Positions 1 through 4,886 of a stretch of 39,625 nt of DNA are shown here, piece after piece. A program made the translations under genes and the position numbers. Position 1 is the stretch's first letter, and every line of letters begins with the position of its first letter. The notes under the pieces were generated by a model, which saw nothing but the letters and a program-made list of their open reading frames with translations, did not search any database and was not told the DNA's origin. The stretch comes from Escherichia phage nasanit. Location: the sequence record PV245933.1; one strand, given 5' to 3'.

Positions 1-44
1 TGGAATACAACGAGGCCACGGATGGCTGACACTAGGAGGACATA

Positions 45-251
45 ATGTTGTCATTGGATTTTAACAACGAGGTAGTGAAGGCTGCTCCGATTGTAGGGAC
101 AGGGGTTGCCGATGGTGCTGCCAGACTGTTCTTCGGCCTGTCACTTAACGAGTGGTTCTATGTAGCCGCAATTGCCTACACAGTGGCTCAAATTGGTGCC
201 AAGGTAGTCGATGTGATTATCAAATGGAAGAAGGAGGGTAAAGATGTCTAA
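45..251 (+). CDS. 17.5: Holin, T7 gp17.5-like (type II holin)
   Basis: 68-aa ORF with AGGAGG SD about 8 nt upstream; hydrophobic core and basic C-terminus; close resemblance to T7-group holin as I recall it. Confidence 0.85.
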   Translation: MLSLDFNNEVVKAAPIVGTGVADGAARLFFGLSLNEWFYVAAIAYTVAQIGAKVVDVIIKWKKEGKDV

Positions 252-513
252 TGATAAATCTTTGATTCAATTCCTTGAGATGCTGGACACTGAGATGGCT
301 CAACGTATGCTGAAAGACCTTCAGGATGACGAGAAGCGCACACCTCAACTGTACAACGCAATCGGGAAACTATTAGAGCGCCACAAGTTCCAAGTCTCCA
401 AGTTACAGCCAGACCGTAACATCCTTGGTGGACTGGCAGATGGACTCGAAGAGTACCAGAACATGGTAGGTGCCGACGGTCTCACTGAAGATGAGAAGTA
501 CACGCTGAACTGA
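244..513 (+). CDS. 18: Terminase small subunit (DNA maturation protein A), gp18-like
   Basis: 89-aa ORF starting MSNDKSLIQFLEMLD, overlapping holin stop by 8 nt; T7 gp18 size and sequence pattern. Confidence 0.88.
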   Translation: MSNDKSLIQFLEMLDTEMAQRMLKDLQDDEKRTPQLYNAIGKLLERHKFQVSKLQPDRNILGGLADGLEEYQNMVGADGLTEDEKYTLN

Positions 514-516
514 TGG

Positions 517-560
517 AATAACTCAAGGCCACTACATCTAGTGGTCTTTATGATATTTCA
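517..560 (+). promoter_or_regulatory. Conserved processing hairpin (RNase III site-like, R18.5 position)
   Basis: AACTCAAGGCC...TAGTGGTCTTTATGATATT; member of an 8-copy hairpin family; stem pairs with G-U wobbles at RNA level. Confidence 0.45.
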
Positions 561-611
561 ACACAACTCACGGTGACGCTACGTGAAATCTGAAAATACG
601 GGAGGGTAGTT

Positions 612-1055
612 ATGCTCAAGAATTTAAAGAGCTACGCCATAATCGCTGCGTTTGCCTTGGGTATTACCCTTGCGTATAACCACGGATATGACAAAGCTAA
701 CACTAAATGGGAACAGGAGGTGCACAATGAGTACGTTAAGAAAGTTGAGGCGACTGCGGATAAACAGGCTGCTCTCAATGAAGTCTCACGACAATACCAA
801 GAAGACCTTGCGGCGCTGGAAGGCAGCACTGATAGGGTCATTAATGATTTGCGTAACGATGGTAAGCGGCTGCGTGTCAAACTATCAGCCACCTCACGAG
901 AACTCCAAGCTAACGGTGGATGCCTCGTTGATGGTCGAGCCGAACTTGACGAAGAGTTTAGTAAGCGTCTTATCGGAGTAACTCAAAGAGGGGATGCGTG
1001 GATTAAAGCGCTCCAAAATACAATAACTGAAATACAATCTAAGAAGGAGAAATAA
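612..1055 (+). CDS. 18.5: i-spanin (Rz-like), gp18.5
   Basis: 147-aa ORF, N-terminal TM helix then coiled-coil periplasmic domain; motif WEQEVHNEYVKKVEA typical of T7 gp18.5. Confidence 0.85.
   Translation: MLKNLKSYAIIAAFALGITLAYNHGYDKANTKWEQEVHNEYVKKVEATADKQAALNEVSRQYQEDLAALEGSTDRVINDLRNDGKRLRVKLSATSRELQANGGCLVDGRAELDEEFSKRLIGVTQRGDAWIKALQNTITEIQSKKEK
727..981 (+). CDS. 18.7: o-spanin (Rz1-like lipoprotein), gp18.7, embedded in +1 frame of 18.5
   Basis: 84 aa starting MSTLRKL inside ORF 652-981; lipobox-like VSGC followed by Pro-rich segment; embedded arrangement as in T7. Confidence 0.75.
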   Translation: MSTLRKLRRLRINRLLSMKSHDNTKKTLRRWKAALIGSLMICVTMVSGCVSNYQPPHENSKLTVDASLMVEPNLTKSLVSVLSE

Positions 1056-1056
1056 T

Positions 1057-1614
1057 ATGGCTGCTACAAACTCAAGAACCCGCACACTCTGGACCATCAA
1101 TGGTCGCTCACCAGACAGTCGTGATGTGTATGACCACAACAATATTGGTATTCGCGTTGGGCGTATCGACATCCCAGCTTCGGAGATGGTCAAGGTAGAT
1201 GGCTACTCTAAGGTTGAATACGTTGTTCAACTTAGCGATGGCACCACTGAGCAACATGCTACGTTCGAGACCCTTATGTCCACTTGGGGTGGCTCCGTCG
1301 AGTCTAAGCCGGGAAGCGGGTTCATGACGGTGTTCCTGAATGAGCAAAGCACTGAGCGACTCGGTATGGTTCGAATCGACGTATACAAAGAGTGGACTGG
1401 TGCTGACCCTGAACCTGAAGGTGGCATGGCTTCCTTAGTTAGCGCAACGCTTTCTGCGTCTGATAGTGAATTTGGTACACAGTTCGTGGATAGCGAAGGG
1501 AAGAGCGCTTCCGTTATGTTCCAACCTAGTAACATCGACGGGGCTGTATCTAAGACCGACACTATCAAGGCTCTTGAGAAGCGCATTGATGCCTTAGAGA
1601 AATCTGCCAAGTAA
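1057..1614 (+). CDS. Hypothetical protein, 185 aa, no family recognised
   Basis: Intact ORF; ATG 1 nt after 18.5 stop with AAGGAGA SD; ends 15 nt before gene 19; codon usage like neighbours; no TM segment; amphipathic C-terminus KALEKRIDALEKSAK. Confidence 0.6.
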   Translation: MAATNSRTRTLWTINGRSPDSRDVYDHNNIGIRVGRIDIPASEMVKVDGYSKVEYVVQLSDGTTEQHATFETLMSTWGGSVESKPGSGFMTVFLNEQSTERLGMVRIDVYKEWTGADPEPEGGMASLVSATLSASDSEFGTQFVDSEGKSASVMFQPSNIDGAVSKTDTIKALEKRIDALEKSAK

Positions 1615-1629
1615 CAATAGGAGGCCACA

Positions 1630-3387
1630 ATGTCTACTCAAGCAAACAAGAATGCGCTCATCGTGGCGCAACTTAAGGGTGACTTCGTGGCCTTCCTGTT
1701 CGTCTTATGGAAGGCTCTGAACTTACCTAAACCAACCAAGTGTCAGATTGATATGGCACGTACACTCGCTAATGGCGACCACAAGAAGTTTATCCTACAG
1801 GCGTTCCGTGGTATCGGCAAGTCCTTTATCACCTGTGCGTTCGTCGTGTGGGTCTTATGGCGTGACCCTCAACTTAAGGTGCTCATCGTGTCTGCCTCTA
1901 AGGAACGTGCTGATGCTAACTCCATCTTCATCAAGAACATCATCGACCTCCTTCCGTTCCTCTCTGAGTTGAAACCTCGACCGGGACAGCGAGACTCCGT
2001 GATTAGCTTCGACGTTGGCTTGGCGAAACCAGACCACTCACCCTCTGTGAAGTCTGTAGGCATTACTGGTCAGTTGACTGGTAGCCGTGCTGACATTATC
2101 ATCGCAGATGACGTTGAGGTTCCCGGCAACAGTTCTACAAGCTCTGCTCGTGAGAAGCTGTGGACACTGGTAACTGAGTTTGCTGCGTTACTTAAGCCGT
2201 TACCTACCTCTCGTGTTATCTACCTTGGGACACCTCAAACCGAGATGACTCTCTATAAGGAACTTGAGGATAACAAAGGGTACAGCACGGTAATCTGGCC
2301 AGCACAGTATCCACGTAATGATGCTGAGGCTCTCTACTATGGGGACCGCTTGGCTCCGATGCTTAAGGCTGAATACGATGAGGGCTATGAGTTACTTCGT
2401 GGTCAACCTACTGACCCTGTTCGATTCGATATGGATGACCTCCGTGAACGTGAACTCGAATATGGCAAAGCTGGCTACACTCTTCAGTTCATGCTTAACC
2501 CGAACCTTAGTGATGCCGAGAAGTACCCGCTACGGCTCCGTGACGCTATCGTGTGCGCTGTGGACCCCGAACGTGCCCCATTGTCTTACCAGTGGTTGCC
2601 GAACCGTCAGAACCGCAATGAGGAACTCCCTAACGTTGGTCTTAAGGGTGATGACATCCATGCGTTCCATACGTGCTCTTCTCGTACCGCTGAGTATCAG
2701 TCTAAGATTCTGGTCATTGACCCAAGTGGTCGTGGTAAGGATGAGACCGGGTACGCAGTCCTCTACTCACTTAACGGTTATATCTACTTGATGGAAGTCG
2801 GTGGGTTCCGTGGTGGTTACGATGATGCTACCCTAGAGAAGCTCGCTAAGAAGGCCAAGCAGTGGAAGGTACAGACAGTCGTCCATGAGTCCAACTTCGG
2901 TGACGGTATGTTCGGTAAGATTTTCTCTCCGATTCTCCTGAAGCACCATAAGTGTGCCTTAGAGGAAATCCGTGCTAAGGGCATGAAGGAGATGCGAATC
3001 TGCGATACTATCGAACCGTTGATGGGTGCGCACAAGCTGGTAATTCGTGATGAGGTTATTCGTGAGGACTACCAGACTGCTCGTGACCTTGATGGGAAAC
3101 ATGATGTTCGCTATAGTGCGTTCTATCAGATGACCCGTATGACCCGTGAGCGAGGCGCTGTGGCACACGATGACCGACTTGATGCTATCGCATTGGGTAT
3201 CGAATGGCTACGCGAGGGGATGCTTGTAGACAGCCGTGTAGGTGAAGAAGAGATGACCCTTGAGTTCCTTGAACACCACATGGAGAAACAGACCATTGGT
3301 GGCGACCAGATTCATAGCTATGATGTAGGAGGTGTGGACATCTACTATGAGGACGATGGGGACTCTAGCAGCTTCATTGAGTGGTAA
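1630..3387 (+). CDS. 19: Terminase large subunit (DNA maturation protein B), gp19
   Basis: 585 aa; Walker A-like AFRGIGKSF; strong overall similarity to T7 gp19 (T7 is 586 aa). Confidence 0.95.
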
Positions 3388-3476
3388 TATAGATAAGTAT
3401 GCGGGAAAGGTGCATAGGTAAGCACTTAGTACCGCTACGTTACCGTTAAGTAACTTACTGATATACATGAAGAAAT

Positions 3477-3499
3477 TAATACGACTCACTATTGGGAAG
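3477..3499 (+). promoter_or_regulatory. Phage RNAP promoter (phiOR position)
   Basis: TAATACGACTCACTATTGGGAAG; matches T7 promoter core except T at -1. Confidence 0.8.
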
Positions 3500-3655
3500 G
3501 GCACCCTAAGACAACTTAAAGACACTTAAAGACTGCATATGCAAAGTGCATACTTAGTGACTACTCTTAGAGACCCTTACAGTGTGGGATGATAGTAATT
3601 GTAATTACATCCCTACTATCAGTGTAACCATCAAGTATAACAAGGAGGACGCTCT

Positions 3656-3811
3656 ATGCGCTTACTATCCGTGCTCAAGACACTGGCAACGCATCGAGTG
3701 ACCTACAAATTTCTCGCTGTACTTGCTGCTTCCATCGGTCTCGCATCTAGTGTTGAACACATCGGTGAACTGGAGACTCTGCTTTGTTCTCTACTCACTT
3801 GTGTTCCTTAG
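3656..3811 (+). CDS. 19.5: gp19.5-like small protein (51 aa)
   Basis: ORF MRLLSVLKTLATHRVTYKF... with AAGGAGG SD; last gene before genome right end as in T7. Confidence 0.6.
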   Translation: MRLLSVLKTLATHRVTYKFLAVLAASIGLASSVEHIGELETLLCSLLTCVP

Positions 3812-3839
3812 ACTGCTCGTTGGCGCTTAACGCGCTCTT

Positions 3840-3877
3840 AGTGATTATGGTCGATATACATCTTCCCTATAATCACT
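3840..3877. repeat. Inverted repeat (9-bp arms AGTGATTAT / ATAATCACT) near genome right end
   Basis: Perfect 9-bp arms separated by 20 nt, read directly from sequence. Confidence 0.5.
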
Positions 3878-4084
3878 GTAAGAAGTCAACTCTAAGAGGT
3901 AGCCTTATGTATTCCTTAACGGTCTACAGGGTCTCTTAGGGTCTCTCACGTGGTCTAACCTTATGATAGCCACTCCAAGGATAACCTTATGAGAGACTTG
4001 ATGTACCCCTTTAAGAATCCTACAGAAAAATCTGAGTGGGTATCTCATAGTTCATACCAAGTGGTTTCCCCCTGTAGGTAACTC

Positions 4085-4187
4085 TGTGGATAACCTGAGG
4101 ATAACTCTGTGGATAACTTGTGGATAACTCTAGGTTAGAGGCTGTGTGGATAACTTTGGGTGAGACTGTTAGTAACTCTGTGGATAA
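4085..4187 (+). repeat. Array of five perfect TGTGGATAA 9-mers (complement TTATCCACA = consensus DnaA box) plus one imperfect copy
   Basis: Perfect copies at 4085, 4108, 4119, 4145, 4179; TGAGGATAA at 4096; all in the same orientation. Confidence 0.6.
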
Positions 4188-4207
4188 CTCTGTGTCTCTG
4201 TGTCCCT

Positions 4208-4214
4208 ATCTGTA
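4208..4214 (+). promoter_or_regulatory. Candidate phage-RNAP pause site (concatemer-junction type), ATCTGTA
   Basis: CCCTATCTGTAAG resembles the T7 class II pause/termination signal ATCTGTT at the T7 concatemer junction; one mismatch. Confidence 0.3.
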
Positions 4215-4366
4215 AGTGACCTTTGAGTTATCACCTTATGTTATCACCTTATGACCCTTTAAGTATCACCTTATGGCTGGTTATCCTTATGTTAACCTTC
4301 AGTCGGTGCCTTCAGTCCATAGACCTATCGTTGCCACTCTTAGACCAGCCTTAAATACCATACAGC

Positions 4367-4389
4367 TAATATGACTCACTATTGAGGAA
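4367..4389 (+). promoter_or_regulatory. Phage RNAP promoter (phiOL position), variant
   Basis: TAATATGACTCACTATTGAGGAA; degenerate relative to the other copies. Confidence 0.65.
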
Positions 4390-4472
4390 TAGCTAATACT
4401 GGTCATCTTCCTTATAGGGATAACTTAAAGACTACTAAAAGAGATACTTTGAGAATTCTTTAAGATTGAGTA

Positions 4473-4501
4473 TTGACATTGATAATAGCTTATGAGACTA
4501 T
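4473..4501 (+). promoter_or_regulatory. Sigma70-type early promoter (A1-like)
   Basis: TTGACA, 17-nt spacer, GACTAT. Confidence 0.5.
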
Positions 4502-4607
4502 AGCAACCGTTGAGAGACACAACGCTACCAACCACTAGACAAGACCGAGAGTTATCTAGTGAGGCTGAAGAGTCTCAAGTAGTCATCAACCAGACACACG
4601 AAAGTGG

Positions 4608-4636
4608 TTGACTCAACGAAAGCAATAACGTAGTAT
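4608..4636 (+). promoter_or_regulatory. Sigma70-type early promoter (additional)
   Basis: TTGACT, 17-nt spacer, TAGTAT. Confidence 0.45.
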
Positions 4637-4697
4637 AGCAGTCGTCAACAACTGGTCGCCCTCTGAAACAACATGAGGTGTCACGGTGAGAAAGGTG

Positions 4698-4727
4698 TTG
4701 ACAAGCAGTAAAGATAAGATGTAAGAT
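4698..4727 (+). promoter_or_regulatory. Sigma70-type early promoter (A2-like)
   Basis: TTGACA, 18-nt spacer, TAAGAT. Confidence 0.55.
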
Positions 4728-4857: not shown

Positions 4858-4886
4858 TTGACACGGTAACGAAAGCACGATAAGAT
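4858..4886 (+). promoter_or_regulatory. Sigma70-type early promoter (A3-like)
   Basis: TTGACA, 17-nt spacer, TAAGAT; downstream sequence GTACCAC..AGTGAGTCACCACACTGAAAGGTGATGCGGTCTAACGAAACCTGACC resembles T7 A3 region. Confidence 0.55.

Follow-up and report, generated by a model that had tools for sequence, protein, structure and literature searches.

Where the DNA of the virion begins and ends, and what the repeats at that place consist of, is the question raised by positions 3812-4366 of the genome sequence of Escherichia phage nasanit (record PV245933.1), a stretch of 39,625 nucleotides that was analysed as a whole and is called the window here. These positions hold repeat-dense DNA between gene 19.5 and a promoter of the phage RNA polymerase (RNAP) at the phiOL position. 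Comparison with related genomes makes it very probable that the region is a T7-like (Berlinvirus) concatemer junction in which a direct terminal repeat (TR) of 165 bp has been collapsed to one copy, and in which the interior of the repeat is a cassette of DnaA boxes. From left to right, gene 19.5 is followed by an inverted repeat, three copies of the heptamer CCTTATG, the TR, the motif ATCTGTA, four further copies of CCTTATG and the phiOL promoter. An earlier reading, made from the letters alone and called here the sequence-only reading, had already seen collapsed genome ends in this region.

The best matches of the window, obtained by megablast with 24.6 kb of it, belong to Berlinvirus (Autographiviridae, Studiervirinae), with Enterobacter phage PZJ0206 and Escherichia phage 285P about 95% identical, and no record identical to the window was present in the collection searched. 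In many relatives, the last 400 bases of the window joined to its first 400 match the tail fibre, holin and small terminase genes without a break, which shows that the assembly is a closed circle, opened at an arbitrary place between genes 17 and 17.5. The window holds one copy of the TR, and the relatives are linear with direct terminal repeats; the proposal of the sequence-only reading that one copy had been collapsed during assembly is borne out by this comparison. The assembler would have closed a linear, terminally redundant genome into a circle and kept a single TR. Both the small and the large terminase encoded by the phage (gp18 and gp19) are of T7 type according to Pfam, T7-type replication genes are encoded as well, and gp19 shares 94-98% identity with its counterparts in BA14, Kvp1 and A7.

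The edges of the repeat were placed by homology. The central block starts with TCTCATAGTTCA at 4043 and contains CTGTGTCCCTATCTGTAAG at 4198-4216, as had been described before, and TCTCATAGTT and CCCTATCTGT occur once each in the window. TRs start with TCTCAYAG and end with ...CTCTGTGTCCCT in T7, BA14, Kvp1 and T3, and close variants of both motifs are found in Berlin and A7. In an alignment of six phages, the invariant columns cluster at the two edges of the TR, the left one reading TCTCAYAGT...TTCCCCC and the right one TCTCTGTGTC(C/T)CTATCTGT, and the interior is variable. The pattern that spans the right edge, TCTCTGTGTCCCT directly followed by ATCTGT, is conserved in T7, BA14, Kvp1, P483 and A7 and carries some substitutions in T3 and Berlin; SP6, whose record has no repeat annotation, shares only the ATCTGT motif, at position 174. 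In the Studiervirinae records checked (T7, T3, Berlin and BA14), ATCTGT begins at the base right after the TR, and in BA14 a 'concatemeric junction' feature is annotated on CTATCTGT, with phiOL about 160 bp further on. Because ATCTGT directly follows the TR in these relatives, the ends of the window's repeat were set at 4043 and 4207, with ATCTGTA outside it and an ambiguity of one base in either direction, as an A flanks both sides. The true ends had been expected near 4043 and 4215: the first is exact by homology, and the second lies 8 bp further left. With the TR fixed in this way, the virion genome should run from 4043 to 39625 and then from 1 to 4207, a length of 39,790 bp.

The motif beyond the right edge resembles the class II pause and termination signal of the T7 concatemer junction, a signal described as seven bases, ATCTGTT, that are strictly conserved and follow an A, C or T. 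The resemblance pointed out by the sequence-only reading holds for six of the seven bases, at the homologous position, and for the preceding base (T at 4207); the strict motif is lost at the seventh base, which is A. That position is A also in BA14, Kvp1, A7 and P483, C in Kp7, and T in T7, T3, SP6, phiEap-1 and NJ2. The core that is invariant in the family is ATCTGT.

Other placements of the ends, or no fixed ends at all, have to be set against these boundaries. Sequence conservation continues to ATCTGTAAG, as would be expected if the TR extended through ATCTGTA to a right end near 4215, but the relatives make such an extension highly improbable: in the four records named above the TR ends right before ATCTGT, in the Kvp1 record it stops two bases earlier (...GTGTCCC), and in A7 it stops one A later. 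Primer walking on the DNA of the phage located the ends of Kvp1 (PMC2579914), and for A7 they were located by run-off sequencing from restriction fragments (PMC8427288); the extra A in the 177 bp of A7 may be an artefact of run-off sequencing. Scarcely credible is a phage with headful or circularly permuted packaging, in which the single repeat would be nothing else than internal repeat-rich DNA. The assembly is circular and its ends are not duplicated, which such packaging would explain, but short direct terminal repeats are routinely collapsed by assemblers; one published account states that they are often deleted (PMC10438801). Besides, the terminase is of T7 type, and all examined relatives with preserved termini, among them the two mapped experimentally, have fixed ends at homologous motifs.

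The interior of the TR carries a feature of which the sequence-only reading made no mention. The sequence TGTGGATAA, the reverse complement of the consensus DnaA box TTATCCACA, is present in five perfect copies in the window where 0.37 would be expected, all of them inside the TR and in one orientation. Degenerate units at 4073 (two mismatches) and 4096 (one mismatch) have the same orientation as the perfect boxes, so that the sites at 4073, 4085, 4096, 4108 and 4119 form a row spaced 11-12 bp. Tandem Repeats Finder independently reported 9.8 copies of a 12-bp unit at 4079-4194; their consensus, TAACTCTGTGGA, reads in tandem as a DnaA box plus CTC. The relaxed consensus TT(A/T)TNCACA had no match elsewhere in the window on either strand. 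In the alignable ungapped block, the three boxes common to four close relatives had 0 variable positions out of 27, against 10 out of 47 in the neighbouring interior (p = 0.007), a conservation that lends weak support to constraint on the boxes.

The closest relative genome-wide, PZJ0206, has an interior of the BA14/Kvp1 type with 0 boxes, between flanks and TR edges that are near-identical to those of the window. Because the interior differs completely while the surroundings match, the comparison indicates an exchange of the segment from about 4057 to 4195 as a cassette, the breakpoints lying within the conserved ends of the TR. Box-bearing interiors of the window's type are present in P483 (five boxes), A7 (four) and SEqdws-315 (four), the number of units differing among these phages and the window, and NJ2 has a more diverged version of the cassette with three boxes and TGTGGGTAA variants. 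Arrays in other Autographiviridae (listed in the table below) contain three to six perfect boxes inside or at the TR, nearly all in the same orientation, with spacers unrelated to those of the window; the motif common to the arrays is YYTGTGGATAACT. In the arrays for which an ATCTGT motif was identified, 15-22 bp separate it from the end of the last perfect box, with the exception of NJ2, in which degenerate units occupy this stretch; the motif was not located for ZK1 or PmP19. A combined pattern of two boxes and CTATCTGT was specific in IMG/VR, matching only A7 and P483 among T7-like contigs. IMG/VR scans for three boxes or for paired CTGTGGATAACT gave, among the matches listed, mostly unrelated contigs, from which no frequency can be derived. 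When the three-box IMG/VR loci were screened for CCCTATCTGT, no match was obtained, because A7 reads CTCTATCTGT.

The sequence of the terminase does not co-vary with the type of TR. The gp18 and gp19 of the window are 95.5% and 94.7% identical to those of Kvp1, which is box-free, and 67% and 78% identical to those of phiEap-1, which is box-bearing. The idea that the TR interior serves as a terminase recognition site is weakened by this comparison: gp18 and gp19 track overall relatedness, and the closest genome has another interior.

Taken with moderate confidence, the interior would be a real DnaA-recruiting array and not a chance product of repeat homogenisation, because its boxes match the strongest consensus exactly, because they recur with unrelated spacers that have not been homogenised, and because they are independent of the terminase sequence. 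A wider proposal is made tentatively, as a possibility that falls short of an even chance: the TR interior would be a mobile cassette that recruits a host factor, and several lineages of T7- and SP6-like enterobacterial phages would have acquired or kept tandem perfect boxes, in each case just upstream of ATCTGT, so that DnaA coats the genome ends and the junctions. Several facts weigh against the reading of the region as a junction with a working DnaA cassette. The assembly has only one copy of the TR and its ends were placed by homology to relatives; the seventh base of ATCTGTA departs from the strictly conserved signal, and pausing of the polymerase there is predicted from the motif only. 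No DnaA box is found in 44 of the 45 distinct TCTCAYAG...TGTGTCCCT TRs of the IMG/VR sample, or in the TRs of T7, T3, SP6, Berlin, BA14, Kvp1 and PZJ0206. Tandem repeats can homogenise without selection, and the variation test reached significance only in the alignable ungapped block; a first, right-anchored ungapped version gave p = 0.41, because the leftmost unit was out of register. Since most relatives do without boxes, these are dispensable for the basic function of the junction and any role must be accessory.

We think it somewhat unlikely that the resemblance to DnaA boxes is incidental, the interior being a generic array of 11-12 bp whose effect depends on the shape of the DNA or on a protein of the phage and in which concerted evolution happened to fix the unit TGTGGATAA. 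Most T7-like TRs lack a box, the box-free TRs of Berlin and T7 also carry tandem units of about 11 bp, intermediate TGTGGGTAA units exist in NJ2 and in phage 175002, and the left-hand units switch between perfect and one-mismatch forms among close relatives. A chance origin has to contend, however, with a probability of about 1e-4 for this 9-mer in a given 12-bp unit and with the recurrence of YYTGTGGATAACT in four lineages, where the spacers are unrelated and not homogenised within an array; moreover, neither the small nor the large terminase tracks the TR type, and tandem box arrays of the same kind are known from unrelated microviruses. Five clustered boxes in one orientation could also be taken for a DnaA-dependent replication origin or iteron region, instead of or besides a packaging junction, and secondary origins of T7 map near phiOL. 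This is improbable. The search of 3600-4700 found no 13-mer unwinding element (with up to two mismatches), no GATC and no IHF consensus, for which reason an oriC-like origin was rejected; in addition, the phage has its own T7-type replication genes, its closest relative lacks any box, and the edges of the block are exactly the conserved end motifs of the TR.

If the region is a junction with a DnaA-box cassette, the following course of events, including the pausing, the cleavage positions in this phage and the binding of DnaA with its consequences, is what we infer. By homology, and with high confidence, the junction would work as in T7. Replication would give rise to head-to-tail concatemers, with one TR between genome units as in T7. 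Phage RNAP starting from the late promoters and phiOR would move rightward through the TR and meet ATCTGTA at its right edge, and the T7-type terminase (gp18/gp19) would cut at the conserved boundary elements. Duplication of the TR would then leave a copy at both ends of each virion DNA of 39,790 bp. The inverted repeat and the CCTTATG arrays are positional counterparts of the T7 features, and the interior is predicted to load a row of host DnaA molecules, all in the same orientation, on each genome end and on each junction. In transcription pausing and processing at the junction, such a row could be a roadblock specific to one orientation, or an architectural factor; it could also tether the entering genome end, by analogy with the proposal for T5, or sequester DnaA from the host.

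The comparison with known systems shows which parts of this arrangement are shared. With the junction of T7 the window has in common the site between gene 19.5 and phiOL, the TCTCAYAG start, the boundary between TCTCTGTGTCCCT and ATCTGT, the flanking heptamers, the T7-type terminase, and an inverted repeat situated some 30 bp past gene 19.5 and some 190 bp to the left of the TR. It differs in the heptamer (CCTTATG versus CCTAAAG), in the motif (ATCTGTA versus ATCTGTT), in the length of the TR (165 versus 160 bp) and in the interior, where its DnaA boxes are unrelated in sequence to T7, which has none. With the TRs of BA14, Kvp1 and A7 the match is almost exact in the flanks, in the elements at either end of the TR, in the CCTTATG arrays, in the inverted repeat and in ATCTGTAA. 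The box-bearing interior, with four to five perfect boxes in each phage, is likewise present in A7, P483 and SEqdws-315, whereas BA14, Kvp1 and PZJ0206 have a different, box-free one. In E. coli oriC and datA, clusters likewise consist of perfect high-affinity 9-mers, but the window has no unwinding element, GATC or IHF site and is far denser, with five boxes in 103 bp. In the low-affinity arrays of oriC, as in the array of the window, neighbouring sites share one orientation and are separated by 2-3 bp. A further analogy is offered by lambda cosB, whose IHF site binds a host protein that aids terminase assembly, so that a site for a host protein lies inside a cis-acting packaging region; the likeness would go no further, as the host protein, the type of terminase and the structure of the ends are different. 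The nearest precedent for boxes in a terminal repeat is phage T5, whose left terminal repeat contains about eight DnaA boxes in the injection-stop (iss) region, TTATCCACA being the commonest (10.1101/866236). As in the window, the T5 boxes lie in a direct terminal repeat at the genome end that enters first, in DNA that is non-coding, repeat-dense and conserved in relatives (10.1101/866236). They differ in forming pairs 3 bp apart within inverted repeats, in a repeat of 10 kb and several kb away from its end, whereas those of the window form a tandem array of one orientation in a TR of 165 bp, 43-145 bp away from its end, and the phages are unrelated. The role proposed for the T5 boxes, a tether between the membrane and DnaA, is itself a hypothesis (10.1101/866236).

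As a junction, the region belongs to the textbook biology of T7, and TRs of the same type already stand in public records (A7 and P483). To our knowledge, the function of the repeats inside T7-type terminal redundancies has never been settled. In the openly searchable literature, nothing was found that links DnaA boxes to T7-like phages or Autographiviridae, only the T5 work and unrelated papers, and the A7 paper does not mention DnaA (PMC8427288). For annotation, the consequence is that the circular assembly should be re-opened at 4043 and the 165-bp repeat restored, to give a linear genome of 39,790 bp. For biology, the interest lies in the interior, where the strongest DnaA recognition sequence known is repeated in a clean array; as a cassette it seems to be exchanged among phages that are near-identical, and it turns up again in distant relatives. 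Host DnaA at the ends of phage genomes is a concrete, testable hypothesis that would tie the T7 group to the old and unexplained boxes in the TR of T5. If it is true, it would amount to an undescribed dependency on the host in phages that have been thought independent of the host's replication-initiation proteins.

Table 1. Positions of the junction features and neighbouring genes in the window, and of terminal repeats (TR) and DnaA-box arrays in other phages (ORF, open reading frame; L numbers designate the sequence records analysed)
Sequence	Feature	Position (strand)	Remarks
Window	Small terminase	244-513	Follows holin; PF11123, E = 5e-18
Window	gp18.5		After small terminase, before 185-aa ORF
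Window	185-aa ORF	1057-1614 (+)	Between gp18.5 and large terminase; no Pfam match
Window	Large terminase, T7-type	1630-3387	PF22530, E = 8e-40
Window	Phage-RNAP promoter, phiOR position	3478-3500 (+)	Upstream of gene 19.5; copy of TAATACGACTCACTATTGGGAGA; BA14 phiOR annotated at same relative position
Window	Gene 19.5	3656-3811 (+)	51-aa ORF; homologue of T7 gp19.5; last gene before right genome end
Window	Inverted repeat	3840-3877	Starts 29 bp after 19.5 stop; centre 185 bp left of TR
Window	Right-end heptamer array, CCTTATG x3	3903-3991 (+)	Copies at 3903, 3959, 3985; counterpart of T7 SRR
Window	Direct terminal repeat, single collapsed copy, 165 bp	4043-4207 (+)	First (4043) and last (4207) virion base by alignment with T7, BA14, Kvp1, A7 and the ATCTGT rule
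Window	Conserved left-end element TCTCATAGTTCATA	4043-4056 (+)	Invariant or near-invariant columns in six-phage alignment
Window	TR interior, 12-bp tandem array, consensus TAACTCTGTGGA, 9.8 copies	4073-4187 (+)	Perfect boxes at 4085, 4108, 4119, 4145, 4179
Window	Conserved right-boundary element TCTCTGTGTCCCT	4195-4207 (+)	Same in T7, BA14, Kvp1, P483; one base different in A7
Window	ATCTGTA	4208-4214 (+)	Counterpart of T7 concatemer-junction class II pause/termination motif ATCTGTT; preceded by T (4207)
Window	Left-end heptamer array, CCTTATG x4	4234-4291 (+)	Copies at 4234, 4247, 4269, 4285; counterpart of T7 SRL
Window	Phage-RNAP promoter, phiOL position, TAATATGACTCACTATTGAGGAA	4368-4390 (+)	Aligns with annotated BA14 phiOL
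Window	Three sigma-70-like promoters, T7 A1-A3 position	4608-4636, 4698-4727, 4858-4886 (+)	Consensus scan
T7	TR, 160 bp		Recovered from the T7 record; ATCTGT starts at 161
T3	TR, 231 bp		ATCTGT starts at 232
Berlin	TR, 226 bp		ATCTGT starts at 227
BA14	TR, 194 bp		Annotated at both ends; ATCTGT starts at 195
Kvp1	TR, 194 bp		
A7 (Shigella phage)	TR, 177 bp		
phiEap-1 (Eapunavirus)	Box array	L132 1-215	5 boxes, 21-22-bp spacing
Kp7 (Klebsiella/Proteus Molineuxvirinae)	Box array	L262 1-245	5-6 boxes
ZK1 (Klebsiella/Proteus Molineuxvirinae)	Box array	L263 455-745	5-6 boxes
PmP19 (Klebsiella/Proteus Molineuxvirinae)	Box array	L265 1075-1330	5-6 boxes
Klebsiella phage 175002 (Przondovirus)	Box array	L264 1-225	Two boxes inverted
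NJ2	Box array	L133 630-860	3 perfect boxes
IMG/VR junction loci	Box arrays	L359, L282, L323	

The sequence-only reading had also described the flanks of the repeat, and its description stood up to the comparison. Seven copies of CCTTATG lie in 3903-4291, split around the central block into three on the left and four on the right. The heptamer is the most frequent 7-mer of the junction; the window has 12 copies, all on the + strand, against 3.55 expected and at most 9 in a shuffled sequence. T7 has eight copies of CCTAAAG to the right of its left TR, BA14 and Berlin have CCTTATG/CCTTAAG, and arrays stand on both sides of the TR in the window, in T7 and in BA14. The inverted repeat with 9-bp arms at 3840-3877 is perfect, consisting of AGTGATTAT (3840-3848) and ATAATCACT (3869-3877) around a spacer of 20 nt, and BA14 and Kvp1 carry it unchanged. 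When folded as single-stranded DNA, it is more stable than shuffled sequences (z = -2.9). Its counterpart in T7 is an imperfect inverted repeat of 19 nt, 30 bp past the 19.5 stop, whose centre lies 190 bp to the left of the TR. A hairpin end left of the T7 junction was reportedly proposed as a processing intermediate by Chung, Nardone and Hinkle (1990), and the inverted repeat described here may be related to that hairpin, which is offered as a lead and not as a result.

The DNA that separates gene 19.5 from the phiOL-position promoter is non-coding, as previously stated. In BA14, an ORF of 105 aa with an 'unknown product' (39380-39697 of the BA14 record; L001 1185-1502) is annotated from gene 19.5 into the TR. 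The equivalent frame of the window, 3784-4101, contains multiple stops, because of which the ORF in BA14 is probably not a gene, and coding across the junction was rejected. A search for structured RNA at the junction gave no Rfam match at E <= 1. Phage promoters with TAATACGACTCACTATTGGGAGA, which we take to be the T7 promoter consensus except for T in place of A just before the start site, number nine in the window (3483, 4373, 10013, 11163, 12527, 22235, 25835, 30295 and 37634). The sigma-70-like sites are no more numerous than expected from shuffled sequences, and their assignment as early promoters rests mainly on their position; four host-RNAP promoters are annotated in the equivalent region of BA14.

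On the left side of the junction, the gene 19.5 product is identical to BA14 gp19.5 in 48 of 51 residues and to Kvp1 gp19.5 in 49 of 51, as counted from the translations. The 185-aa ORF has a counterpart of 'unknown product' in BA14, and it is absent from that position in A7 and Kvp1. On the right side follow a SAM lyase at the gene 0.3 position, gene 0.7 and the RNA polymerase gene. GATC is strongly depleted, with only 3 sites in the 39,625 bases and 0 in 3812-4366, and T7 is likewise depleted of it.

Tandem units of similar length were also seen outside the box-bearing TRs. The units of the box-free TRs are GGTGTACTTTA-like in Berlin (L272 60-140) and CCYTRRGGGTT-like in T7 (L005 70-150), and an interior with a period of 11-12 bp looks like a general property of these repeats. 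Bajarodmic virus 162 (Microviridae) carries five perfect tandem boxes 2-3 bp apart, right after its replication-initiator gene (L134 1501-1555), and pairs of CTGTGGATAACT were present, among the matches listed, in several microvirus and gokushovirus records and in many IMG/VR contigs of 4-7 kb.

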